UHGV virus genome: UHGV-0187309 | DNA length: 44,350 bases | DNA from: a virus | Direction: 5' to 3' (one strand) | In this document: positions 1,852 through 43,037 of the stretch, in pieces | Position numbering within the stretch: position 1 is the first letter of the stretch | Layout: each line of letters starts with the position of its first letter | Translations under genes and position numbers: made by a program | The notes under the pieces: generated by a model | What the model was told of the DNA's origin: nothing | Databases searched by the model: none | What the model saw: the letters and a program-made list of their open reading frames with translations, nothing else

Positions 1852-2487
1852 TTATACAGCCTTTTCCATCACTACCTCAGTCAAAGCCCTCTTGCATATC
1901 TCAGCAGGATTCCCGTTCGGCTTTATCCAGCTTTCAACGTCCTCTCTACTCAGTATCACCGGCATTCGGTCGTGGATGCTTCTCAGTTCCTCGGTTGCGT
2001 CCCGTGTGATTACCGCAAACACCGGGCAATTAACTCCGTTTCTCTCCTCGATCCTATACAACAGCCCAGCAAGCAGCGTAGATTCGGCTCCTTTCGGCTG
2101 TATCAGGTATTTATCGCCAACCTTCTTCTTTTTCCCGTCCGGACTCCTGAAATGCTCCCATTCAAAGTACCAACTGCTCGGAATTACGCATCTACTTCGG
2201 AACCATGAGTCCTTCCACATTTCCTTCTGGTCAGCCGTTTCGAGGCGGCAGTTCACGATTGGAGCATCGGTCGCGTCATGACTGAAACCCCAGAGCATCG
2301 GAAAAACTTCCATTCTTCCGTCCTTATTCGGTGCTAAAACCGCAGCAACATCAGTCGGACGCAGTTCACCGGACATAAACAGCGGTTTGCCGAGTTTTAC
2401 CATGATAGTATTCGCTAGCTCCAGTTTCTGTGCCCGTGTGATCAGCGGAGCGAACTGAGCAGGCTCTACATAGAAGCGTGTACACAT
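1852..2487 (-). CDS. SOS-response-associated peptidase (SRAP / YedK / HMCES-like, DUF159) abasic-site processing protein
   Basis: 211 aa; N-terminal MCTRF with Cys2 (catalytic Cys of SRAP family), overall SRAP-like length and motif pattern. Confidence 0.8.
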   Translation of the reverse strand: MCTRFYVEPAQFAPLITRAQKLELANTIMVKLGKPLFMSGELRPTDVAAVLAPNKDGRMEVFPMLWGFSHDATDAPIVNCRLETADQKEMWKDSWFRSRCVIPSSWYFEWEHFRSPDGKKKKVGDKYLIQPKGAESTLLAGLLYRIEERNGVNCPVFAVITRDATEELRSIHDRMPVILSREDVESWIKPNGNPAEICKRALTEVVMEKAV

Positions 2488-2501
2488 AAGACCACGACCT
2501 T

Positions 2502-3059
2502 TCAGCCTTCGATCATTCTCAGCTTATAGTGTTTTCGGCAGAGTGCTGTATAACTCTCATTACCGCCGAGCTGTACCTGTTCTCCCTCTGTGACCATTTC
2601 ACCGTTCAGGAGTCTTGCATTGAAGTGCGCTCTTTTGCCGCACCAGCAGATGGTCTTGATCTGCTCAATATCGTCTGCAAGCTCCATGAGCCGCTGTGCG
2701 CCGGGAAACAGATGACTCTGGAAGTCTGTCCGCAGGCCGTAGCAGATAACTGTGATGCCATGAAAATCCACAAGATCACTGAGCTTGTCTATCATTTCAG
2801 GTGACAGGAACTGCACCTCGTCAACGATGATACAGTCATAATGCTCACCATTATAGTCAGCAAGGAAGTTTTCAGCAAACTCGCAGGGTTCTTCAAGTCC
2901 GATGCGGGATTTTAGGTTCTTCGCACCGTCCCTGTCCTCGCATCTCGGCTTCAGCAGAAGCACTTTTTTGTCTCTCTCATAGTAGTTATATCGAACCATA
3001 AGCGCATTGGCGGTCTTGGAGCTGCCCATTGCGCCGTATCTGAATATCAGTTTTGCCAT
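2502..3059 (-). CDS. tdk: Thymidine kinase
   Basis: 185 aa; P-loop YGAMGSSKT, IIVDEVQF Walker B, C-terminal Cys cluster (CWCG...C) typical of type II thymidine kinases. Confidence 0.9.
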   Translation of the reverse strand: MAKLIFRYGAMGSSKTANALMVRYNYYERDKKVLLLKPRCEDRDGAKNLKSRIGLEEPCEFAENFLADYNGEHYDCIIVDEVQFLSPEMIDKLSDLVDFHGITVICYGLRTDFQSHLFPGAQRLMELADDIEQIKTICWCGKRAHFNARLLNGEMVTEGEQVQLGGNESYTALCRKHYKLRMIEG

Positions 3060-3064
3060 CTGCC

Positions 3065-3955
3065 TTACTCCTCATCGTCCTCGTGCATGACTTCATATCG
3101 CTTGATATCTCTCTTGCTTGCAATGGAAGCGGGTTCAAGGATACCGAGAACGCGCCCGATCAGAGTGACATTGTCATATTCTGTGAATGTCATGGTATCA
3201 TACTTATCATTAAACGATACCAGACCTTCTTCCTCATATATCTTTATGTATGTACTGTTTCCAACCATGAAAGCGCCGACCTCATCGTATTGCAGCTCCG
3301 GACAGCCGGGATACTTCTCCACAAGAACAAGGTCGCCGTCATGATACTCAGGCTCCATACTGTCGCCGTTGACAGGAAACACAAGGTCTGCCTGCCGTAT
3401 TGCTGTGTTCGTATTCGGATACAGATAGATCGGTGTTCCGTTGTCCTCAAACTCCGCCCCGCCGTCAAAGCCTGCTGCAAGCCCCTTGTCGCAGAGTGTC
3501 AGTTTGATGATCTCCGGGAAGCTGCCGACAGTCTCTGCCGCTTCAAGCGAGGATAGCAGACTGTCCATTGCAAGCTGGTGCGGATACGACAGTCCACGGT
3601 ATCTCTCTACCATAGACTTTTCCTTATCAGTATAGGTATCTTGCTTGTTTTCGATGCCATATAGTTCATACAGCGTGATACCAAGTGCGTCACATAGCTT
3701 AGGAACAACGCTGAAATCCGGGCGGGTTCTTCCGTTCTCCCAGTTACTGATAGCATTTGAGGTCACGCCGATTTTTTCTGCAATCACTTTCTGATCTAAT
3801 TTTAGACGCTCCCTGTAGTATTTGATGCGACCGCCAACCGCGTGAGCGTCCTTACGGTGGGCAGGATCAGAGATGTTACTCTTAATATCCTTGCCTCCCT
3901 GTGAGACTGAGATATTCGGTTTCTTACGCTGTTTCATTACAAAGCTCTCCTTCAA
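3065..3955 (-). CDS. Phage CI/LexA-like repressor (XRE-type HTH plus S24 peptidase domain)
   Basis: 296 aa; N-terminal HTH (QKVIAEKIGVTSNAISNWENGRTRP), C-terminal S24 signature GDSMEP and a downstream Lys; divergent from the next gene with intervening promoters. Confidence 0.9.
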   Translation of the reverse strand: MKESFVMKQRKKPNISVSQGGKDIKSNISDPAHRKDAHAVGGRIKYYRERLKLDQKVIAEKIGVTSNAISNWENGRTRPDFSVVPKLCDALGITLYELYGIENKQDTYTDKEKSMVERYRGLSYPHQLAMDSLLSSLEAAETVGSFPEIIKLTLCDKGLAAGFDGGAEFEDNGTPIYLYPNTNTAIRQADLVFPVNGDSMEPEYHDGDLVLVEKYPGCPELQYDEVGAFMVGNSTYIKIYEEEGLVSFNDKYDTMTFTEYDNVTLIGRVLGILEPASIASKRDIKRYEVMHEDDEE

Positions 3956-4097
3956 GAATGTATGGGATAGTCAATCCTCAAAACGAACAAATATTCTTAT
4001 TGAAATCTGTGCAACCCTACAAAGTTTATCAAAGACTTTTCAACGCTGAAAACGTTAGAAATGCGAAATTTGGCGTAGGCATTGCATCTTTGATCAC

Positions 4098-4126
4098 ATT
4101 ATAGCACACAATCGGTGTTTTGTCAA
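4098..4126 (-). promoter_or_regulatory. Repressor promoter (TTGACA-17-TATAAT on minus strand)
   Basis: Reverse complement of 4098-4126 reads TTGACA, 17 nt, TATAAT with TGn extended -10. Confidence 0.6.
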
Positions 4127-4131
4127 TACAA

Positions 4132-4147
4132 AATTGCACTTGCAATT
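4132..4147. promoter_or_regulatory. Palindromic candidate operator AATTGCA-CT-TGCAATT overlapping the -35 of the rightward promoter
   Basis: Perfect 7 bp inverted repeat with 2 bp centre, located between the two divergent promoters. Confidence 0.5.
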
Positions 4148-4168
4148 CGTTTGACGGTGTGATATAAT
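4140..4168 (+). promoter_or_regulatory. Rightward promoter (TTGCAA-17-TATAAT) for the ImmA-like gene
   Basis: TTGCAA at 4140-4145, 17 nt spacer, TATAAT at 4163-4168; about 200 nt leader before ATG at 4370. Confidence 0.55.
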
Positions 4169-4369
4169 AGCAATGTCGGTATTCCGCCTACAGGAAAATG
4201 AGACCGAAGGCTGGTGCAGTGTGTCCGTCTTAAGGTGTGTGACAGGACAGACTGCCGGTCAGAGTACCGACAACTTCGCCATCAACCCACTTCGCCACGA
4301 TAGATATACAGAACAATAGAATGGAGCTAATGTTGGAAATACCATAAGTTGCGAAACAGGAGGGCGTAA

Positions 4370-6298
4370 ATGACTATATATCTTGATAGAGGACCGTTTC
4401 TCACCATTCCCGACAAGCTGCATTCGGGGCAGTACAGAGTGATCCGCAACCCCGACTGGCACGGAGTACTGCCGGAGATCGTGTCCTTCACCGATTTTCT
4501 CAAATGGAATTACACACTGGAGTATGGTCAGTATATCCGCAAATTGCACTACTACCACCAGCTTCCGCTGCCGTGGGTCGTTCCACAGGATGCCGAGATA
4601 GAAACTGTCATCATCGAGGAAGGCAGATATGACCGCATTGATCACAATTCCTTTGATATGTATGTGATATGCGATGTCGTGTTCGAGATGAACGGCTGCC
4701 GGCAGTGCCAGAAGTATATCGTACACGGCTTTTACTGCTCTTACGGCGGTTCAGACTTTCTGTGCGGTGCGGAGCTCTACAATGGTCAGTTTATCCGGCT
4801 GAACAATCCCTTAGATGAGTTTCTGGTTCCCATCCTTTCAAAGAAAGAATTTGCAAGCATTGCACAAGCAATCATCGACCACTACTATTCATACAAATCG
4901 AATTATCCCTGCCGCATCAATACTGCTTCAATTGCAAAGGCAATGGGTCACGATATAAAGTATGCCAGACTGTCAAAAAACGGAAATGTCAAGTCCAAGC
5001 TGATCCTGGACAAGCGGGATACGACCGTCTATGATAAGGAATACAAAGCTGTCAAAATGCGGATCGACAGTCCTACGATCCTTGTGGACGAGTCATTGGA
5101 GGAGGATGAAGCGCAGAACGCCATTATTCATGAGTGCGTTCACGCTTACCTTCACAACCTCTTCTATGAGCTGCAGAGCTACTATCGGAAAATGGTCGGC
5201 AGGAAGATGCCGGAGTTCAATGACTACTTCTATTCCAAGACGCAGCGTAGCTGCCTGAAATGGATGGAAACACAGGCAAATGCCATCCCACGCTTTATTC
5301 AGATGCCGGAGGAGCAGGCATCCGATGTCATCCTGAACTTCTTCGAGCGACTCCCCGGAGAGCCTGACTGGGACGATTACAGAGAACTGATCGACCTTGT
5401 GAAATGGAAGTTCGGAGTATCCCGCAATGCTGCGAAGAAGCGTATCATTGAGCTTGGCTGGCCGGAGGTGCGCGGTGTGTATGTCTACAACACCACAGGA
5501 TATGTTGAGGACTACGATGTAGAGCTAAGATTCCCGCAGGACTATACCTATACACTGTCATTCCGCCAAATCTCTGATGTGTTTGCATCCTGCGAGACCT
5601 TCGCAGAGCTTGTCCGTTCCAAGAAGTTCATCTATCTGGACGGTCATGTTGTGATCAACAGCGACAGGTATATCCGCAAGGAACACGGCTTAGCTATGGG
5701 CTTGACAGAGTATGCTAGACACCACATGGCAGAGTGCTGTCTGGATTTCAAGCGTATCTACGCAGAATTCGACTACAGCTATACCTATGGCGAGCTACAC
5801 AAGGATGACCTGACCGAGATCACGGCCGAAAACCGTTCGTTCAGCGATGAACAGCGAAAGAAGATCCGCATGGCAATGTATGAGATCACAGAAGAAAACT
5901 ATAAACTGACCGTTCCTTCAGATGTCAACGAATTCGGCAAGGCGGTGCGTTTCCATATGGAGAGATGCGGTCTCACCTCGGATCTGGTTGCAGACCGCAG
6001 CGGCATGGGTGTGAACACTGTCAATAAGATGCGCAGTGGCAAGAGAGTGAAGCTCGAAACAGTGCTAGCTTTTTGTGTCGCTTTGGAGCTTGAAGAGTCG
6101 TTCCGCATTGACCTTATGCAGAAAGCGAAGGTTGATTATGATATGAGCAATCCTGCCCATCGGCTCTATGTCACGATCTTTGAGCTGATGCCGAAGGCAA
6201 ATGTCTTTCAGATCAACGATCTGCTGAAGGCAGAAGGCTTTACGCCGTGGACGAGGGACTGCGAGGAAAAGAAGCGGTATGCTAAGAAAAGTATGTAA
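4370..6298 (+). CDS. Large ImmA/IrrE-like HExxH metallopeptidase-domain protein with C-terminal XRE-type HTH
   Basis: 642 aa; HExxH in IIHECVHAYLH; C-terminal HTH-like segment RSGMGVNTVNKMRSGKRVKLETVLAFCVALEL; AGGAGGG RBS. Confidence 0.8.
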   Translation: MTIYLDRGPFLTIPDKLHSGQYRVIRNPDWHGVLPEIVSFTDFLKWNYTLEYGQYIRKLHYYHQLPLPWVVPQDAEIETVIIEEGRYDRIDHNSFDMYVICDVVFEMNGCRQCQKYIVHGFYCSYGGSDFLCGAELYNGQFIRLNNPLDEFLVPILSKKEFASIAQAIIDHYYSYKSNYPCRINTASIAKAMGHDIKYARLSKNGNVKSKLILDKRDTTVYDKEYKAVKMRIDSPTILVDESLEEDEAQNAIIHECVHAYLHNLFYELQSYYRKMVGRKMPEFNDYFYSKTQRSCLKWMETQANAIPRFIQMPEEQASDVILNFFERLPGEPDWDDYRELIDLVKWKFGVSRNAAKKRIIELGWPEVRGVYVYNTTGYVEDYDVELRFPQDYTYTLSFRQISDVFASCETFAELVRSKKFIYLDGHVVINSDRYIRKEHGLAMGLTEYARHHMAECCLDFKRIYAEFDYSYTYGELHKDDLTEITAENRSFSDEQRKKIRMAMYEITEENYKLTVPSDVNEFGKAVRFHMERCGLTSDLVADRSGMGVNTVNKMRSGKRVKLETVLAFCVALELEESFRIDLMQKAKVDYDMSNPAHRLYVTIFELMPKANVFQINDLLKAEGFTPWTRDCEEKKRYAKKSM

Positions 6299-6312
6299 TA
6301 ACGGCATTTTCA

Positions 6313-6337
6313 GGAGGCTTTCGAGCCTCCTTTTTTT
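6313..6337 (+). terminator. Rho-independent terminator
   Basis: GGAGGCT-TTCG-AGCCTCC hairpin followed by TTTTTTT. Confidence 0.8.
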
Positions 6338-6946
6338 ATGCCCTGAAATATTTTCATGAAGCCCCCAGAAAAAATGGGGGCGATTTGCGTTTTTGAAATA
6401 GTTTAGAGACAGAATGTTCATAGAATATCCATTTAATTTAGATGATATGAACAAGTGAAGATGATATATCAAAGTTGAGATAAGCACAGTGCATAAAAAG
6501 CAGCCCCCATTTTTTATGTATGTAAAAGAAGATTCGGATATGTTATGATATAGACACGGTCAAGGACAGGCACCACCTTCCAAGACTGAAACACCACAAT
6601 GCCGGATGCATACGGCAGAGGATGTTCATATGATATCTGAACAGAATGCCATAGGTATACCCTGTGGTCGGAAGCCGATGTCATATGTCTACTCTGTGCT
6701 ATGCATCCGGCTATTTTTTTTGCCGCGGCATTCGGAGCATGGCAATTAGATCATTACATTTGTTAGTCAGGGCGCGCACTGGCGGACAGATGCTCATAGC
6801 GGAAATAACATCACGATTTGGAGTCTGTATAGACTGACAAGGTGTATTTCGTGTGGACATCGTCCCCTGCGTGCCTTTTTCTCTGGGACAGCAGTCGCGT
6901 TATGGGCATCTGCCGCTTGGTGTGTTCCTTGCAGAAAGGAACGATT

Positions 6947-7669
6947 ATGGAAAACGCAAATGTTCAGAATGCTGCCGCTATCACCGATAAGACCACCCTC
7001 GGCGAACTGCTTGCAATGCTTGACCTCGCTGATAAGGCAGGCAAGATGCCGACACCGAGAGAACTGTTTGAGACTGCCGGTTCGCCGATAGCCGATATGA
7101 ATGGCTGCACTCTCTTCAGCAACGGCTTCGCCATCTATCAGAATGTCACTGGGCGCACTGTTGTCTGGCTGCCGTACTGCAAGAGCTTCACCTATTACTT
7201 CGGCAAGCTCCGTGATTCCGAGAAAGACACGCTGACAGAGACCTATGAGCTGCCGGATGGATTTCTGGAAACACAGCCGTGGGTGATCGCAGTAACACTG
7301 ATCGGCGACCATCGTGTGGAGGCAAACAGCATGAACCGCACCGGCAGCCGCAAGGATACCACAGATTATGACAGCGCCGATAACGGCGATAAAGACGGTG
7401 ATGCAGAGGAGGCTTTGGCAGATCCGTATCGCAGGGCATTCAACTGGTATGACGGACGCATGGGCGAGAATCCGCAGGATGCCGTGGAGCGCAGAGAGAC
7501 ACGCGAGGAGATGCTTGCAGACATGACGGACAAGCAGCGTGAAGCCTTTATTATGTACTTCAGGGATGGTATGACGCAGGAAGAGATTGCTTCATATATA
7601 GGGGTAAGCCGTGATTCCATAAATGACAGGCTTGAAGGTGCTTTGAAAAAAGCAAAAAAATATTTTTAG
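6947..7669 (+). CDS. Sigma-70 region-4-like DNA-binding regulator
   Basis: C-terminal QREAFIMYFRDGMTQEEIASYIGVSRDSINDRLEGALKKAKK resembles sigma region 4 HTH; start at ATG 6947 (AAAGGAAC RBS) rather than the longer ORF start at 6842. Confidence 0.7.
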   Translation: MENANVQNAAAITDKTTLGELLAMLDLADKAGKMPTPRELFETAGSPIADMNGCTLFSNGFAIYQNVTGRTVVWLPYCKSFTYYFGKLRDSEKDTLTETYELPDGFLETQPWVIAVTLIGDHRVEANSMNRTGSRKDTTDYDSADNGDKDGDAEEALADPYRRAFNWYDGRMGENPQDAVERRETREEMLADMTDKQREAFIMYFRDGMTQEEIASYIGVSRDSINDRLEGALKKAKKYF

Positions 7670-10601: not shown

Positions 10602-13487
10602 GTGGTGATTTTATTGAGCAGACGTGTACTTTCCATCGACTTAGAGACCTATTCGGATGTAGACCTCCCGAACTGCGGTGTGTACCGCTATGTTGAGGGA
10701 GATTTCCATATCCTGCTGTTCGCATATGCATTTGACGATGAGGAGACAAAATGCGTGGATATGGCCTGCGGGGAGCAGCTCCCGGCAGAGGTCGTGGATG
10801 CGCTGCAGGATGACAGTATTATCAAATCGGCATGGAACGCACAGTTTGAGCGTACCTGCCTTTCAAAATATCTCGGTACGCAGATTTCTCCGGACTCGTG
10901 GCAATGCACGATGGTATGGGCGGCATCGCTTTCACTTCCGCTGAAGCTGGCAACGGCTGCACAGGCACTGAAAACTGCACAGCAGAAGGACGCTGTCGGT
11001 GAGCGTCTTATCCGTTATTTCTCTCTGCCCTGTAAGCCCACCAAAGCAAACGGCGGCAGAACAAGAAATCTGCCGGAACACGCCCCCGAAGACTGGAAGC
11101 TGTTCAAAAGCTACTGCATACAGGACGTGGAAACCGAGCGGGATATCCGCCGCAGGCTTGAAAAGTTCCCCCTGCTCCCGCAGGAATGGGACTACTACCA
11201 CATGGATCAGCGGATCAATGATCGCGGTATCCTGATCGACAAAGAGCTTGTGCAGCAGGCTATTATCTGCAATATGGCAATGTCCGAAGAAATGACAAAA
11301 CGTGCATACGCTCTGACAGGACTTGAAAATCCGAATTCCGTATCACAGCTCAAGGGATGGCTTGAGGAGCGTGGCATTGAGGTGGATTCCCTCGGCAAAA
11401 AGAATGTCGCTTCTCTTATCACAGACCTCGACAGGCACAGCGCAGACGGTGAGGCTCTGGATATGATGAAGCTGCGGTTGCAGATGGCAAAGTCCTCTGT
11501 GAAAAAGTATCAGGCGGCAGAGAGATACATCTGTCAGGACGGCAGGGCGCACGGACTGTTTCAGTTTTCCGGAGCTCAGCGAACACAGCGCTGGTGTCTT
11601 ACCGGCGATCATGAAATACTGACAGATAAAGGCTGGCTCAGGCTTGATAATTGGCAGGGCGGTAAGATTGCTTGTTGGAATCCTAATCAGGAAATGGTCT
11701 CGTTCCAGAAAGCGAACGTATTGTGCTTTGAATATGACGGTCCTATCTACCGCTATGAGGACAAACGGATCGATCAGATCAGCACGCCGGATCACAAAAT
11801 GCGTGTAAAGAAACGGTATAACGGCGAGTGGACGGATGACACTGTTGGCAATATGGAAAAGTATCGTCCTTCTATTCCGTTTACCGGACGCAGACAAACG
11901 ATGCCCGGCTTGGAGCACGCAGAACTGAGGGTACTGGTGATGACGCAGGCTGACGGCAGCTATAAAGAAGATGGAATGCTCTGCTTCCATTTCAAGAAGA
12001 AAAGGAAAATAGAACGGTGCAAACATCTGCTCAGACAGGCGGGCATTTATTTCACAGTGAATGAATGCAGGACAGATGGAACAACGCAGATCAAGATTCC
12101 TTCCCGTGAGCAGCCGATGTATCTAAGAATGTTTCATAACAAGACATTTGGAATGTGGCTTCTCGATGAAAGCCCGGATGTTTTCTTTGATGAGCTTCGG
12201 TATTGGGACGGATCGCAAAGCGCCAAAAACAGTATCCAATATACCACAACGAACAAAGTGAATGCCGATATTGTTCAGGCTTTTGCTCATACAAGTGGTC
12301 GCTGTGCAAAAATGAAAACGGTCATCCGGGATAAAGAACACCCGAATTGGAGCGATGCATACTATCTCGATATATGGCTCACTCCGAAAAACTGTCATGA
12401 AATCAGAGTGAAGCCGACTATCTCGCAATTCAGCGGCAAAATATACTGTGCTGAAACCCCAACCGGATACTTCCTTGTAAGACGTAATGGTAAAGTGTGG
12501 GTAACAGGAAACAGCGGGCGCGGCATTCAATTACAGAACCTGCCGCAGAACCACATCTCTACCCTCGATGAAGCAAGAGAACTTGTCAAAATGGGCTGCT
12601 TTGACATGATCGAAGCACTGTACGGCAATACGCCGGATATCCTGTCACAGCTTATCCGCACGATGCTCATTCCGAAGGACGGCTGTGAATTTATCGTGGC
12701 AGACTTCTCCGCCATTGAAGCGAGAGTACTTGCGTGGCTTGCCGGAGAACAGTGGCGGCTCGATGCCTTCAAGCGTGGCGAGGATATTTACTGTGCATCC
12801 GCATCGCAAATGTTCGGTGTTCCGGTCGTGAAGCACGGCATCAATGGAGAACTGCGGCAGAAAGGCAAGGTCGCTGAGCTTGCCTGTGGTTACGGAGGTG
12901 GCAGCGGTGCGCTGATCTCTATGGGTGCGCTGGATATGGGACTGAAAGAGGATGAACTTCCCGACATCATTTCAAGCTGGCGCGATGCAAACCCGGAGAT
13001 CGTGAAATTCTGGTATGCCGTGGAGAAAGCGGCGATCGAAACAGTCAAGGACCACGCGGAAAGAACGGTCGGCAGGATCGGTTTTCAGTTCTCTGCAAAT
13101 ACACTGTGGATCGTGCTGCCGTCCGGGCGCAGACTTGCCTACATCAAGCCGAGGTTACAGCCGAACCGTTTCGGGCGTATGGCGCTGACCTTTGAAGGAC
13201 TCGGTGCAAACAACAAATGGACGCGCGGTGAGACATACAGCGGCAAGCTGACGGAGAACATCACACAGGCGACCGCCCGTGACCTGCTTGCAGAGGCAAT
13301 GCACCGAATGGAGCTTGCGGGACTTGACATAGTCGGTCATGTGCATGATGAGGTCATTTTGGAAGTGCCGAAAAGACAATATACGGTCGATGATGTGTGC
13401 AATATCATGAATCAAAATCCGAGATGGGCAGACGGTCTGCCCTTATCATCTGCCGGATATACCGGCAATTACTACTTCAAAGACTGA
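10602..13487 (+). CDS. Family A DNA polymerase (3'-5' exonuclease plus polymerase domains) interrupted by an intein
   Basis: N-terminal LSIDLETYS exonuclease motif; after conceptual intein removal RTQRW|SGRGIQLQNLPQN resembles the PolA TGRLSSxxPNLQNIP motif; downstream HVHDEV motif C. Confidence 0.85.
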   Translation: MVILLSRRVLSIDLETYSDVDLPNCGVYRYVEGDFHILLFAYAFDDEETKCVDMACGEQLPAEVVDALQDDSIIKSAWNAQFERTCLSKYLGTQISPDSWQCTMVWAASLSLPLKLATAAQALKTAQQKDAVGERLIRYFSLPCKPTKANGGRTRNLPEHAPEDWKLFKSYCIQDVETERDIRRRLEKFPLLPQEWDYYHMDQRINDRGILIDKELVQQAIICNMAMSEEMTKRAYALTGLENPNSVSQLKGWLEERGIEVDSLGKKNVASLITDLDRHSADGEALDMMKLRLQMAKSSVKKYQAAERYICQDGRAHGLFQFSGAQRTQRWCLTGDHEILTDKGWLRLDNWQGGKIACWNPNQEMVSFQKANVLCFEYDGPIYRYEDKRIDQISTPDHKMRVKKRYNGEWTDDTVGNMEKYRPSIPFTGRRQTMPGLEHAELRVLVMTQADGSYKEDGMLCFHFKKKRKIERCKHLLRQAGIYFTVNECRTDGTTQIKIPSREQPMYLRMFHNKTFGMWLLDESPDVFFDELRYWDGSQSAKNSIQYTTTNKVNADIVQAFAHTSGRCAKMKTVIRDKEHPNWSDAYYLDIWLTPKNCHEIRVKPTISQFSGKIYCAETPTGYFLVRRNGKVWVTGNSGRGIQLQNLPQNHISTLDEARELVKMGCFDMIEALYGNTPDILSQLIRTMLIPKDGCEFIVADFSAIEARVLAWLAGEQWRLDAFKRGEDIYCASASQMFGVPVVKHGINGELRQKGKVAELACGYGGGSGALISMGALDMGLKEDELPDIISSWRDANPEIVKFWYAVEKAAIETVKDHAERTVGRIGFQFSANTLWIVLPSGRRLAYIKPRLQPNRFGRMALTFEGLGANNKWTRGETYSGKLTENITQATARDLLAEAMHRMELAGLDIVGHVHDEVILEVPKRQYTVDDVCNIMNQNPRWADGLPLSSAGYTGNYYFKD
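11595..12512 (+). mobile_element. Intein (about 306 aa) within the DNA polymerase
   Basis: Begins CLTGDHEILT (block A-like), ends YFLVRRNGKVWVTGN followed by Ser as +1 residue (block F/G-like); flanking exteins rejoin into a conserved polymerase motif. Confidence 0.65.
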
Positions 13488-39897: not shown

Positions 39898-40371
39898 ATG
39901 GCTCAGAGAGGCAGAAAACCGACGCCGACAGCAATCAAGGAACTGGAAGGCAATCCCGGAAAACGACCGCTGAATGATGCAGAGCCGAAGCCGGAACGCA
40001 AGGCACCGCCCTGTCCGAAGTGGCTGGAGCCCGAAGCAAAAAAGGAATGGCGCAGGCTGTCAAAGCAACTGGAGCAGATTGGTGTGCTGACCGAGGTCGA
40101 TCAGGCGGCATTCGCATCCTACTGTCAGGCATACGCACGATGGAAAGAAGCCGAGGAATTCATGACCCAGCACGGCACGATCGTAAAAACAAAATCAGGT
40201 TACTGGCAGCAGGTTCCGCAGGTATCCATTGCGCAAACTTATCTGAAGATCATGAACAAGATCGCAGAGCAGTTTGGCCTGACCCCGGCGGCAAGAAGCC
40301 GTATCACTGCCGGCGCAGATATGAAAAACGCTGCCGTTGACGATATGGATGAACTTCTCGGAGGTGGCTGA
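39898..40371 (+). CDS. Terminase small subunit (P27-family-like)
   Basis: MAQRGRKPTPTAIKELEGNPGKRP N-terminus and FGLTPAARSRI near the C-terminus; immediately upstream of and overlapping terminase large subunit. Confidence 0.8.
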   Translation: MAQRGRKPTPTAIKELEGNPGKRPLNDAEPKPERKAPPCPKWLEPEAKKEWRRLSKQLEQIGVLTEVDQAAFASYCQAYARWKEAEEFMTQHGTIVKTKSGYWQQVPQVSIAQTYLKIMNKIAEQFGLTPAARSRITAGADMKNAAVDDMDELLGGG

Positions 40372-43037
40372 TGGCGAGAACGGCAAAGGCAAGAGAAAGA
40401 CCTGCCAACTATCCGAAACTGAAGGATTATAAACCGACACGCTTTATGCTGCCGGAATCGCACTACGATGCGGCAAAGGCTGACCGAGCTGTGCGGTTCA
40501 TCGAGAATCTCTGCCATACCAAAGGACGCTGGGCAGGCAAACCGTTCTGGCTGCTTCCGTGGCAGGAACAGATCATCCGGGATATTTTCGGCATCGTCAA
40601 AGAGGACGATATGCGGCAATTTCGTACCGCCTATGTCGAAATTCCAAAGAAAAATGGGAAGCAGCTTGCACTGGATACACCGATCCCGACTCCGCAGGGA
40701 TTCACCAATATGGGAGATCTGAAGGTCGGAGATACAGTATTCGATGAAAACGGCATTCCGTGCCATGTGGTTGCGAAAAGTCCTGTGGATGATACAGAGC
40801 AAGCCTACAAGCTGACCTTCAAGGACGGCACCTCGATCATTGCCGGGGAAAGGCATCTGTGGAACTGTCAGTATATTTACGGCAAACGCAAGGATGTTCT
40901 CTGGACGACCGGCGAGATCTATCGCAGGACAACGGAATACAGACAGCGTTTTTCCGACAGACCACAGACAAAGCGGGATTCCCTTATCCGAATTCCGGTG
41001 TGCGGTGTCCTTCAGACAGAAGCGGCAGTTTTACCGATTGATCCGTATCTGTACGGCTACTGGCTCGGAAACGGTAATGTGACCATGCCGGAGATCACTG
41101 TTCGGACGGAGGATGTCGAGGATATCATCTCGAATATTCCGTATAAGGTACACAACCGTTATCCGCAGAAATGCGGCGGCAGTGAGATCATAAAGTACAA
41201 TGAACTGAAAGCAGTACTACTTGACAGCTTCCGTGAAAAGAAGATCCGACCAGAATATCTGAGGGCATCCGCAGAGCAGAGATGGGCATTACTGCAAGGG
41301 CTTATGGATTCGGACGGCTGTATCGGCGAACGCAAAGGGCAAAGTGTGTATGTCACAACGCTGCGAGAGCTGGCGCTTTCCGTCAGAGAACTGCTGTGGT
41401 CACTCGGCATCAAAAATGCAGTGAAATGTGAGCCTTCTACACGGCATGGGTGGCCGACCGGCGAGATTTTGTATATCGTCCGTTTTACAACCTTTGATGG
41501 CCAACCGACATCAAGGCTTAAACGCAAAAATACACGCACACAGGCGCGGTTAAAGGAAACTCGCTCCTGTTTTCATTATCTGCTGGATATTCAACCTGTA
41601 AATCATCCTGTAAAAATGCAGTGCATTCAGGTGGACAGTCCGAGTCACCAATATCTCGCAGGACCGTCATTTGTGCCTACGCACAACAGTGAGCTTGCAG
41701 CGGCAATTGCACTGTATCTGCTCTACGCCGACAACGAGCCGTCTGCTGAGGTCTACGGCGCTGCTGCTGATCGTGGGCAGGCATCCATTGTATTCGATGT
41801 CGCCAAAAGAATGGTTGAGATGACACCGGCACTTCTGAAACGCTCAAAAATCATGGCGGCGACAAAGCGTCTGGTGAATTACAGTAATGTTGGCTTTTAT
41901 CAGGTGCTTTCAGCGGAAGTCGGTACAAAGCACGGATTGAATGTATCCGGTCTGGTTTTGGATGAACTTCATGCCCAACCGAACCGCAGCCTTGTGGATG
42001 TTCTCACAAAGGGTTCCGGTGATGCCCGTACTCAGCCGCTGTACTTCCTGATCACAACCGCCGGAACGGATCGCAACAGCATCTGCTACGAGTATCACAC
42101 GAAAGCAAAAGATATTCTGGACGGCAGGCGCATTGATCCGTCCTTCTATCCTGTGATCTACGGCTTGAACGATGATGACGACTGGAACGCAGAGGAGTCA
42201 TGGTATAAGGCAAATCCCTCGCTCGGATACACTATCGCCATCGACCGAGTCCGCGATGCTCACCGGGAAGCCCTTACAAATCCCGCTGAAGAAAATGTAT
42301 TCCGTCAGCTGAGGCTTGACCAGTGGGTAGGCAGTGCGGTGGCATGGATTCCGGAGCATATCTACGACAGGGGCAATCTTCCGATCGACCTCGAAAAGCT
42401 CCGGGGACGGGAGTGCTACGCAGGTCTTGACCTATCCAGCACATCGGATATCACGGCATTTGTGCTGGTGTTCCCTCCGCTGCATGACGGCGAGAAATAC
42501 ATCGTTGTCCCGCACTTCTGGCTGCCGAGAGAAACGCTCGATTTGCGAGTACGGCGAGACCATGTTCCCTACGATGTATGGGAGCGCATGGGATTATTTC
42601 ATATCACCGAGGGCAATGTGGTCGATTACAATTTCGTGCGGAAAACGATCAACGAGCTGCACACGATGTACAACATCAAGGAAATTGCTGCCGACCGCTG
42701 GAATGCCACACAGCTTATCACAGACCTTGAGGGAGACGGATTTACCGTTGTTCCGATGGGTATGGGCTTCAAGGATATGTCCCCGCCGATGAAGGAACTG
42801 TACAAGCTCATACTCGAGGGGCAGTTTATCCACGGCGGCAACCCTGTACTCCGCTGGATGGCAGGAAATGTGGTCGCTGAAATTGATGCAGCGGAGAACA
42901 TCAAACCAAGTAAAAAGAAAAGTACAGAAAAGATTGACGGTATCGTGGCATGGATCATGGCACTTGACCGCTGCATCCGCCACGAAATGCAGGGCAGTGT
43001 CTATGACGAACCCGGCCACGATCTTGTGGTCATCTGA
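40371..43037 (+). CDS. Terminase large subunit interrupted by an intein in the Walker A P-loop
   Basis: N-extein ends YVEIPKKNGK and C-extein resumes SELAAAIALYLLYADNEPSAEVYGAA, together restoring PKKNGKS; downstream VLDELH Walker B and nuclease domain. Confidence 0.9.
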   Translation: MARTAKARERPANYPKLKDYKPTRFMLPESHYDAAKADRAVRFIENLCHTKGRWAGKPFWLLPWQEQIIRDIFGIVKEDDMRQFRTAYVEIPKKNGKQLALDTPIPTPQGFTNMGDLKVGDTVFDENGIPCHVVAKSPVDDTEQAYKLTFKDGTSIIAGERHLWNCQYIYGKRKDVLWTTGEIYRRTTEYRQRFSDRPQTKRDSLIRIPVCGVLQTEAAVLPIDPYLYGYWLGNGNVTMPEITVRTEDVEDIISNIPYKVHNRYPQKCGGSEIIKYNELKAVLLDSFREKKIRPEYLRASAEQRWALLQGLMDSDGCIGERKGQSVYVTTLRELALSVRELLWSLGIKNAVKCEPSTRHGWPTGEILYIVRFTTFDGQPTSRLKRKNTRTQARLKETRSCFHYLLDIQPVNHPVKMQCIQVDSPSHQYLAGPSFVPTHNSELAAAIALYLLYADNEPSAEVYGAAADRGQASIVFDVAKRMVEMTPALLKRSKIMAATKRLVNYSNVGFYQVLSAEVGTKHGLNVSGLVLDELHAQPNRSLVDVLTKGSGDARTQPLYFLITTAGTDRNSICYEYHTKAKDILDGRRIDPSFYPVIYGLNDDDDWNAEESWYKANPSLGYTIAIDRVRDAHREALTNPAEENVFRQLRLDQWVGSAVAWIPEHIYDRGNLPIDLEKLRGRECYAGLDLSSTSDITAFVLVFPPLHDGEKYIVVPHFWLPRETLDLRVRRDHVPYDVWERMGLFHITEGNVVDYNFVRKTINELHTMYNIKEIAADRWNATQLITDLEGDGFTVVPMGMGFKDMSPPMKELYKLILEGQFIHGGNPVLRWMAGNVVAEIDAAENIKPSKKKSTEKIDGIVAWIMALDRCIRHEMQGSVYDEPGHDLVVI
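40662..41687 (+). mobile_element. Intein (about 342 aa) with LAGLIDADG-like homing endonuclease region, class-3-like features
   Basis: Begins QLALDTPI (block A-like, Gln not Cys/Ser at position 1), block B GTSIIAGERHLW, LAGLIDADG-like LLQGLMDSDGCIGE, block F/G MQCIQVDSPSHQYLAGPSFVPTHN then Ser. Confidence 0.65.

Follow-up and report, generated by a model that had tools for sequence, protein, structure and literature searches.

A 642-residue protein joining an ImmA/IrrE-type protease domain to an XRE helix-turn-helix at the repressor locus of a Ruminococcus prophage

The window analysed here is the whole 44,350-nucleotide stretch of the viral genome UHGV-0187309, and the element to which it belongs is a Ruminococcus prophage. 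Two divergent open reading frames were confirmed at the locus under study (Table 1), namely a repressor frame at 3065-3955 on the minus strand and, 414 bp away, a frame at 4370-6298 on the plus strand that encodes a large multidomain protein, here called BIG. Counted from its first TTG (3955), the repressor frame encodes 296 residues, and the true start is likely the ATG at 3937, which is preceded by GGAGAG and would yield a product of 290 residues. The description of this protein as a CI/LexA-like repressor with an S24 domain, made in the initial annotation, is borne out by Pfam matches to HTH_3 (56.8 bits, residues 44-98 of the 296-residue frame) and Peptidase_S24 (49.8 bits, residues 177-269), as well as by a match to PHROG 4, 'transcriptional repressor' (E 1e-37). 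When it is aligned with E. coli LexA, LAA/GFD falls on the VAA/GEP cleavage site (A84-G85), GDSM on GMSM (Ser119), and TYIK on VTVK (Lys156). With an HTH, an S24 domain, an Ala-Gly site, and a Ser/Lys dyad all present, the repressor fits the autocleaving class as far as its sequence goes and, since it possesses its own intact S24 autoprotease, an external protease would not be needed.

Two sigma-70-like promoters stand back-to-back between the genes, and BIG is, as previously proposed, the first rightward gene of this phage and divergent from the repressor gene. The leftward promoter, whose -35 box is kept in relatives, would drive an operon composed of the repressor, thymidine kinase, SRAP, and HELGH protein genes. 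The same interval contains the palindromes ATTGCA-N2-TGCAAT (4133-4146) and TTTTCA-N4-TGAAAA (4037-4052). Megablast found nothing similar to the region among 50,697 phage records, and its relatives are detectable at the protein level only.

Table 1. Features of the repressor-BIG locus (positions refer to the window)
Feature	Position	Strand	Residues	Basis or remarks
CI/LexA-like repressor	3065..3937	-		XRE HTH + S24 autopeptidase; Pfam, PHROG, LexA alignment
Leftward promoter-like site	4098..4126	-		TTGACA-17-TATAAT, extended -10 TG; 12/12 consensus match
Rightward promoter-like site	4140..4168	+		TTGCAA-17-TATAAT with TG; 10/12 match
BIG leader, ~200 nt, conserved	4169..4369	+		5' stem + two ACTTCGCCA repeats
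BIG, multidomain M78-XRE protein	4370..6298	+	642 aa	PHROG 4031; RBS AGGAGGG 4358-4364
BIG N-terminal alpha+beta domain	4370..4789	+	1-140	Cystatin/latexin/NTF2-like fold
BIG ImmA/IrrE-type (Peptidase_M78/COG2856) domain	4790..5449	+	141-360	
BIG middle beta-rich domain + linker	5450..5929	+	361-465; linker 466-520	Invariant columns, pLDDT
BIG XRE-type HTH + C-terminal helices	5930..6295	+	HTH 521-590; helices 595-621	
Two tandem intrinsic-terminator-like hairpins	6312..6381 (6312-6331, 6361-6381)	+		Immediately 3' of BIG
Regulatory region upstream of sigma-like gene	6415..6721	+		Palindromes, rod-like hairpin, T8 run; repeat search
Sigma-70 region-4-like HTH protein	6947..7669	+	240 aa from ATG 6947	Pfam, PHROG, PDB

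The central part of BIG contains the motif HECVH (residues 254-258, nt 5129-5143), followed by H262 and by the segment WMETQAN with E300 (nt 5267-5269), which we take, from the family signature, to be the M78 E-x-x-A-N motif that provides the third-ligand glutamate. H254, E255, and H258 are invariant in two alignments of 21 and 58 homologues, the former of which extends to 22% identity. E300, Q302, and A303 are likewise invariant among the 21 sequences, while among the 58, Q302 shows no variation and E300, A303, and N304 are each retained in at least 90%. The Pfam match of BIG to Peptidase_M78 (PF06114, residues 228-359) barely exceeds the cut-off (22.1 versus 22.0 bits), and the family is matched in 8 of 21 BIG family members at E<=0.01 (best 9.8e-8). 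Moreover, the predicted structure of the domain displays an IrrE-like fold, with IrrE among the BFVD matches and CapP as a close structural match. BIG has an IrrE/CapP-like putative zinc-protease domain with its catalytic motif intact, and the initial annotation was right in its union of an ImmA/IrrE-type HECVH motif with a C-terminal HTH. A conserved Cys, C256, lies inside the metal motif.

The remaining parts of BIG differ in their conservation. Residues 1-140 constitute the least conserved portion, whereas the HTH ranks among the best-conserved parts; it exhibits the five-helix XRE fold and weak Pfam matches to HTH_31, HTH_26, and HTH_3 at residues 521-576. The middle domain (residues 361-465) has no family match. 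H426, T446, A449, and F460 are invariant in both alignments, and C456 is invariant among the 21 sequences and retained by at least 90% of the 58; the His and Cys residues of the domain (H426, C456/C457) are highly conserved. In the predicted model, a flexible linker with pLDDT below 50 at residues 465-485 and 502-519 connects the protease domain to the C-terminal XRE HTH. This disordered segment is conserved among close relatives only and, thus, no conserved self-cleavage site is evident in BIG. In PHROG, the BIG family is listed as being of 'unknown function', and searches of NCBIfam and PADLOC returned no family for BIG.

The transcript of BIG would begin with a structured leader. Its 5' stem is formed by 4174-4184 and 4262-4272, and the two ACTTCGCCA repeats (4273-4281 and 4289-4297) are predicted to pair with GCGAAAC..AGGAGGG (4351-4364), whereby the RBS would be sequestered. 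The leader is retained in relatives down to 60% protein identity, RNAalifold yields 34 pairs with compensatory changes at 6, and the minimum free energy is -58.6 kcal/mol (z -2.25). Rfam gave nothing at the gathering score across the whole window and one sub-threshold chance match in 3900-7000. ACTTCGCCA shows no enrichment elsewhere in the window (with at most 1 mismatch allowed, 13 matches versus 11.3 expected). A 48-residue open reading frame within the leader (4173-4319) was considered as a gene and is unlikely to be one, since neither its start codon nor its reading frame is conserved in relatives.

At its 3' end, BIG is followed by the tandem hairpins, the first of which is kept in the related loci L004, L010, L016, L017, and L023. 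At least one terminator follows BIG in 94 of 123 family loci, compared with 63 of 592 control ORFs, and at least two do so in 44 of 123 versus 5 of 592. The sequence features show BIG in this phage as a predicted monocistronic transcription unit closed by terminators. However, antitermination may carry transcription past them and, thus, co-transcribe BIG with the early operon; a precedent for a terminator following the first early gene is tR1 after cro in phage lambda.

Beyond the terminators, a sigma-70 region-4-like gene opens the replication/early block. Its product matches Sigma70_r4_2 (38.5 bits, Pfam), PHROG 1740, and, in the PDB, SigF region 4. This gene is the strongest conserved gene association of BIG, being located 3' of it on the same strand in 100 of 151 family loci (66%), including the ICE locus L008, and being missing from this position in about a third; the intervening gap has a median of 406.5 nt in an earlier set of 123 loci. 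Upstream of the gene lie TGTTCA..TGAACA palindromes at 6415-6453 and 6623-6643, the latter being TGTTCA-N9-TGAACA, and a rod-like hairpin of 111 nt (6601-6711; -59.6 kcal/mol, z -5.72) that is followed by a T8 run (6714-6721). The hairpin is also present in L010 and L016, and the L004 version is even more stable. Palindromes and repeats of the BIG promoter/leader were compared with those preceding the sigma-like gene, and no operator motif was common to both regions.

The BIG family comprises about 950 clusters (50% identity, E<=1e-30), nearly all of 600-700 residues, which occur in gut phages of the Ca. Heliusvirales type, in phi-SsUD.1-like prophages of Streptococcus, and in some ICEs. In R. 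flavefaciens 007c, BIG is 90% identical. A divergent XRE gene within 800 bp of BIG is found in only 46 of 141 family loci (~33%), among them those of S. suis phages whose switch region spans 130 bp. In 47 of the 141, BIG lies directly 3' of same-strand cargo genes, e.g., restriction-modification (R-M) systems; in L142, a gap of 5 bp separates it from an LlaJI-type R-M operon, and so close a coupling in other lineages is an argument for BIG being expressed during lysogeny. Canonical pairs also coexist with BIG: an ImmR (131 residues) and ImmA (163 residues) pair is divergent from it in L006/L007, and an ImmA adjoining an ImmR likewise stands beside it in L105-L107. A literature search on the family (Heliusvirales, m46.1 repressors, COG2856 fusions) did not find a functional study.

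The comparison of mosaic relatives bears directly on the relationship between BIG and CI. In the hetero-immune relatives L015, L097, and L099, BIG is 90-96% identical, with an identical recognition helix, whereas CI falls to about 49% (48-52% in its HTH region). A Cro protein that shares operators with CI should co-vary with it, which BIG does not; its HTH remains constant while CI is swapped, terminators follow the gene, and a divergent XRE gene accompanies it in only about a third of the family loci. A Cro-like role, which the initial annotation suggested from the position of BIG, is, thus, not supported. In relatives, a different CI type comes with a different -35 box and spacer of the rightward promoter, and the breakpoint of the mosaic falls at the -10/transcription start of the BIG promoter (alignment of the window, L010, L016, L097, L015, and L099). 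The swapping of this region with CI fits a promoter belonging to a CI-specific immunity module, and the co-variation suggests that CI controls it, in which case lysogens may lack BIG, and it may act solely as an early gene once CI has been lost.

M78 and XRE domains are often found in combination. Over half of all COG2856 domains occur in fusions with an Xre domain, for which a likeness to LexA has been pointed out (Makarova et al. 2009, PMC2701414) and, thus, the premise of ImmA-type proteases being invariably small, separate proteins was mistaken. The initial reading of the locus as an unusual switch is, then, partly supported: the repressor type, the domains, and the divergent arrangement stand, and the swapping of the promoter with CI agrees with it, whereas its premise does not stand and the Cro role is not supported. 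[quoted passage not shown] A further report describes many immune operons as regulated by CapP together with CapH (PMC13228613).

Among known systems, ImmR/ImmA of the Bacillus subtilis element ICEBs1 resembles BIG in combining an HExxH...ExxAN COG2856/M78 protease with an XRE HTH in the regulatory border region of a mobile element. However, ImmA is a separate small protein of about 170 residues encoded after immR in one operon, whereas BIG is monocistronic, has 642 residues and its own HTH, and carries the protease N-terminal to that HTH in one chain with two extra domains; it is, thus, distinct from the canonical two-gene immR-immA module, a true copy of which can coexist beside it. IrrE (PprI)/DdrO of Deinococcus and CapP/CapH of CBASS and other defence operons consist of two proteins with a GAF-like accessory domain, while in BIG the XRE domain is fused, a small beta-rich module follows the protease, and the N-terminal domain is cystatin/NTF2-like. 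Relative to M. tuberculosis Rv2515c-type fusions and PrpR/RamB, BIG is larger and has the reverse domain order, since fused Xre-COG2856 and PrpR/RamB-type regulators are smaller proteins with an N-terminal HTH; to our knowledge, none of them has been linked with a sigma-like early gene of a phage. Rir/Crh of the Streptococcus thermophilus phage TP-J34 and Listeria MpaR are M78-type systems that inactivate CI-like phage repressors during induction, but these proteins are small and separate, whereas BIG often lacks a CI neighbour and does not co-vary with CI. Finally, BIG of the window phage shares with lambda-type Cro its place as first rightward gene and a promoter back-to-back with that of the repressor, yet it is about ten times larger, contains a protease domain, is followed by terminators, and has an HTH that does not co-vary with the CI/operator module.

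BIG is probably a regulator that senses stress and not a Cro analogue. The best explanation of these observations, held at less than even confidence, is that it is a core regulator of its phage lineage and operates as a one-polypeptide switch composed of an ImmA/IrrE-type protease and an XRE repressor. This tentative proposal has to be weighed against several others. A somewhat unlikely alternative, which refines the model of the initial annotation, is that BIG is a CI-controlled early anti-repressor, a DNA-tethered protease that cleaves the remaining CI-like/XRE repressor and makes induction irreversible, with the HTH serving for localisation or autoregulation. Such a role would agree with the divergent gene and back-to-back promoters, with a promoter region that travels with the CI type, with the minority of loci, S. 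suis phages included, that have a divergent XRE gene, and with the XRE/CI-like targets of the characterised M78 proteins in the cited reports. Nevertheless, CI owns an intact S24 autocleavage machinery, L006/L007 and L105-L107 already have ImmA and ImmR beside BIG, two thirds of the loci are without a neighbouring XRE gene, BIG is unchanged where CI shifts to about 49% identity, and the R-M coupling elsewhere argues for expression in the lysogen. The conserved linkage with the sigma-like gene, which extends to the ICE locus, and the long non-sigma N-terminal part of the encoded proteins, in which only region 4 is recognisable, could instead mean that the protease processes or degrades the sigma-like protein, as in pro-sigma processing, or that both form a regulator/anti-regulator pair with an autoregulatory HTH. 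This is very doubtful, since transcriptional control explains the adjacency equally well, the sigma-like gene is missing in one third of loci, and in L015 its product is only 34% identical while BIG is 94% identical, which indicates independent swapping; moreover, the processing of a sigma factor is not known for any M78 protease.

A place outside the lysis-lysogeny decision, as a CapP/CapH-like regulator or part of defence or cargo genes (superinfection exclusion, damage-induced defence), would accord with the structural proximity to CapP and with the immune operons that the report cited above places under CapP and CapH. However, cargo varies around a constant BIG and is absent in phi-SsuSSJ27, no PADLOC match was obtained, and BIG keeps a constant place with respect to the early/replication block and the sigma-like gene, which renders this role distinctly improbable. 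It is slightly less probable still that the M78 domain serves for binding and has no catalytic role, as has been suggested for Rir of TP-J34 and for PrpR/RamB, and that BIG is an ordinary ligand-responsive transcription factor. Rir does block its repressor without cleavage (PMC6868357), and H426, C456/C457, and C256 could bind a cofactor, but HExxH and the ExxAN glutamate, invariant in the 21 sequences and kept in at least 90% of the 58, constitute the signature expected of retained catalysis.

On the proposal of a one-polypeptide switch, the best reading of the sequence features is a terminator-insulated protease-repressor sensor that would gate the sigma-like activator. As a stand-by sensor, BIG would be present in small amounts: its gene would be read from its own promoter or, in relatives, be co-transcribed with cargo genes of the prophage, and the leader of the mRNA would occlude the RBS. 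Bound to conserved phage DNA by its invariant HTH, it would keep the sigma-like early activator switched off. The protease would then be activated by damage or stress, through signals such as those that act on IrrE, CapP, and ImmA (ssDNA, metal, or redox), and would cut an XRE-type module. Most likely this module is the C-terminal part of BIG itself, which bears the HTH and would be cut in cis or between the members of an oligomer; the protease may additionally cut the neighbouring repressor. This cleavage would free a second lock on lytic development that, in the window phage, would exist alongside the putatively RecA-sensitive CI-like repressor, resulting in two-key induction. Against a stand-by sensor stand the CI-type-linked promoter of BIG, the lack of a shared operator motif, the lambda precedent for a terminator behind a first early gene, the conservation of the linker among close relatives only, and the absence of the sigma-like gene from about one third of loci. 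In its fullest form, the proposal would make BIG the conserved master induction sensor of Ca. Heliusvirales/phi-m46.1-type phages, a single-chain ImmA-ImmR that a structured leader and a double terminator hold in readiness during lysogeny and that senses a signal other than RecA* and unlocks the sigma-like factor by self-cleavage in a hitherto undescribed two-key (CI plus BIG) or BIG-only switch; taken as a whole, this is unlikely.

BIG represents a conserved, uncharacterised gene at the regulatory boundary of Ca. Heliusvirales/phi-SsUD.1-type prophages. Ca. Heliusvirales are reported to be the most prevalent viral family-level cluster in one human gut cohort (2026 GuFi preprint), and the cargo of streptococcal relatives of the phi-SsUD.1/phi-m46.1 type includes tet(W) and further resistance genes. 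If BIG were a mere accessory regulator, the usefulness of the present work would be largely confined to the annotation of about a thousand protein clusters. By contrast, if the proposed switch is real, the ImmA/IrrE/CapP damage-sensing proteases would gain a fused, reverse-order, multidomain form, and BIG, as an induction sensor, would offer a handle to predict or manipulate prophage activation and the transfer of resistance genes.

The 642-aa protein encoded divergently from the CI-like repressor, here BIG, carries an ImmA/IrrE-type protease with a HExxH motif and a C-terminal XRE HTH, as the initial annotation had proposed, and qualifies by sequence, profile and fold both as M78/COG2856 and as an XRE HTH protein. 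Its match to Pfam Peptidase_M78 barely reaches the gathering score (22.1 bits against 22.0), and the HECxH, H262 and ExQAN motifs are invariant in 21 homologues with identities down to 22%; in a set of 58 they are either invariant or conserved to at least 90%. PF06114 is matched by 8 of the 21 family members and XRE HTH families by 12, while the top BFVD matches of BIG are small phage 'IrrE proteins'. The sequence evidence for M78 membership of the family is solid. The supposition that the protease always stands apart from its DNA-binding partner was wrong, because COG2856-Xre fusions are common. What distinguishes BIG is the reversed order, with the protease before the HTH, a length of ~630 aa that includes two additional domains, and a constant position upstream of a terminator and a sigma-like gene within a major phage lineage; no description of these marks was found in the searchable literature.

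Features of the window and domains of BIG
Feature	Location	Remarks
CI-like repressor gene	3065-3955 (-)	HTH_3 and Peptidase_S24 matches; likely start ATG 3937
Palindrome TTTTCAACGCTGAAAA	4037-4052	Within 5' untranslated region of repressor transcript
Repressor promoter	4126..4098 (-)	Near-consensus
Region of recombination breakpoint	4090-4175	Relative to L015, L097, L099
BIG promoter	4140..4168 (+)	Near-consensus, back-to-back with repressor promoter
BIG leader	4169-4369 (+)	~200 nt, conserved down to 60% protein identity
BIG gene	4370-6298 (+)	
Terminator-like hairpins	6312-6331 and 6361-6381	After BIG
Rod-like hairpin, then U8	6601-6721 (+)	111 nt, just upstream of sigma-like gene
Sigma-like gene	6947-7669 (+)	Heads replication genes
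Family-A DNA polymerase ORF	10602-13487 (+)	961 aa
Large terminase	40371-43037 (+)	888 aa
BIG domain	aa 1-140	Cystatin/NTF2-like alpha+beta
BIG domain	aa 141-360	M78 protease
BIG domain	aa 361-465	Beta-rich, His and Cys residues highly conserved
BIG linker	aa 466-520	Low confidence
BIG domain	aa 521-590	XRE HTH
BIG C-terminus	aa 595-621	Helices

Searching 1.84 billion representative proteins with a profile returned 951 clusters at E<=1e-30; of the 150 best, almost all measure 600-700 aa and align nearly from end to end. BIG corresponds to phrog_4031 in PHROGs ('unknown function', E 1e-76), NCBI labels its relatives 'helix-turn-helix transcriptional regulator', and a literature search for papers about the family found none. 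The hosts include Streptococcus sanguinis, S. australis, S. lactarius and S. suis as well as Ruminococcus, Lachnospiraceae, other Clostridia, Acholeplasma and Izemoplasmatales. The window represents a temperate phage or prophage of the Ruminococcus flavefaciens type, and its BIG is 96% identical to a protein of an R. flavefaciens MAG and 90% to the copy of strain 007c. Downstream of the BIG locus lie a DUF2800/PD-(D/E)XK nuclease and a family-A DNA polymerase, further on an SNF2 helicase, a D5-type primase, SAM synthetase and NrdD, and also DNA methylases and the large terminase, a gene order common to Ca. Heliusvirales gut phages (NatCom records) and Streptococcus suis phi-SsUD.1-type prophages. 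L004 and L010, two relatives with this order, have an Enc34-type ssDNA-binding protein gene between nuclease and polymerase. Their polymerases have 651-652 aa, and that of the window therefore contains an insertion of ~300 aa; the large terminase holds a LAGLIDADG_3 domain, and both insertions look like inteins or homing-endonuclease types.

BIG is insulated from the genes that follow it. At least one terminator-like hairpin occurs within 250 nt of its stop codon in 94 of 123 loci, against 63 of 592 control ORFs from the same loci, and at least two in 44 of the 123, against 5 of the 592. A sigma-70 region-4-like gene follows on the same strand in 100 of 151 loci, with a median gap of 406.5 nt (123-locus set). 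The region upstream of this gene contains TGTTCA/TGAACA palindromes, one of which (TGTTCA-N9-TGAACA) is overlapped by the rod-like hairpin (dG -59.6 kcal/mol, z -5.7). L010 and L016 share this hairpin, and L004 has a more stable one (-74 kcal/mol); together with its U8, the structure resembles a conditional terminator or a target of antitermination. Ahead of the BIG gene, the leader is predicted to form a 5' stem, in which some of the changes are compensatory, and its two invariant ACTTCGCCA repeats are predicted to base-pair with the region of the RBS; statistical support is modest (z -2.25), and the invariant part is free of covariation. This leader, which gave no match in an Rfam search, could exert translational control, or the ACTTCGCCA repeats could be protein-binding DNA sites.

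The divergent gene is indeed a CI/LexA-like repressor with an S24 domain. In an alignment with E. coli LexA, it has the Ala-Gly site of cleavage as well as the catalytic dyad, formed by the serine of GDSM and a lysine, and for this reason the repressor looks like a self-cleaving, RecA-responsive CI type. The palindrome TTTTCAACGCTGAAAA is kept in L010, L016 and L023, which makes it a candidate autoregulatory operator. In L003 (S. suis phi-SsuJS7), the role of the CI-like repressor seems to be divided between two adjacent genes at 2391-3063 (-), both divergent from BIG, for an XRE HTH protein (~104 aa) and a separate S24-like protein (~124 aa).

Mosaicism separates BIG from the repressor. In L015, L097 and L099, BIG is 90-96% identical to that of the window and its HTH recognition helix GVNTVNKMRSGK is identical, while the CI-like repressor is only ~49% identical; L023 presents the opposite pattern (CI 82%, BIG 60%). 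BIG therefore does not share the immunity specificity of CI, unlike a Cro. The breakpoint in these three relatives falls exactly at the -10/start of the rightward BIG transcript. What swaps as a module among hetero-immune relatives comprises the repressor gene, the -35 boxes and the spacers of both promoters; the leader, the coding sequence and everything to the right of the leader are kept. The -35 box and spacer of the BIG promoter, with all sequence to their left, travel with CI; the rightward promoter probably carries CI-specific operators, so CI may control BIG in the window phage. This observation speaks most strongly for the initial annotation.

The neighbourhood of BIG was surveyed in 165 distinct loci using our own ORF calls and ad hoc HMMs. 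A divergent XRE gene within 800 bp of BIG is limited to 46 of 141 loci; the 123-locus set has 38 such loci, 18 of them with an S24 domain. A same-strand gene precedes BIG by at most 60 bp in 47 of 141 loci, and Pfam-identified cargo in this position includes NgoFVII, LlaJI, BpuSI and EcoO109I restriction systems. In L142, BIG comes 5 bp behind a compact block of four cargo genes, which ends in the AAA_5 and LlaJI restriction-endonuclease genes that were identified in the same contig as L054, and no terminator was found along the cargo-BIG stretch until after BIG. One member resides within a conjugative element, behind a WYL-domain gene. A CapP/CapH-like role of BIG in the regulation of cargo or defence genes is considered improbable.

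These surroundings speak against a simple 'Cro plus anti-repressor', and BIG fits neither a Cro-like protein nor a canonical two-gene ImmA module. The main alternative, a refined form of the initial annotation that is rated rather unlikely, holds that BIG is a CI-controlled early anti-repressor protease, with the promoter elements that swap together with CI on its side. Relatives at ~50-55% identity (L006/L007 and L105-L107) carry a complete canonical ImmR (131 aa) and ImmA (163 aa) pair divergent from BIG, accompanied by a Y-family polymerase gene, and BIG is therefore no substitute for ImmA. Very little probability is assigned to an action of BIG on the sigma-like protein encoded downstream, and equally little to a non-catalytic, ligand-binding regulator, the M78 motifs being conserved as described. 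Tentatively, and as one possibility, we favour a single-chain protease-repressor, because of the analogy with IrrE/DdrO, CapP/CapH and ImmA/ImmR, where a damage signal activates a pre-made protease and an XRE repressor is cut (PMC6868357 and abstracts), and with fused COG2856-Xre proteins, which have been likened to LexA (PMC2701414). The identity of the domains, the conservation of the catalytic motif, the terminator insulation, the conserved partner downstream and the independence from CI are shown. For this protease-repressor we infer expression state, DNA targets, substrate and signal alike: BIG would be kept at a low level, transcriptionally insulated from the lytic genes, its invariant HTH would bind conserved phage DNA and gate the sigma-like early activator, and proteolysis would inactivate BIG itself or a partner. 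In the window phage, BIG would act as a second key alongside the RecA-sensitive CI.

BIG matters mainly because its phage lineage is highly prevalent in the gut and, in streptococci, carries resistance genes.
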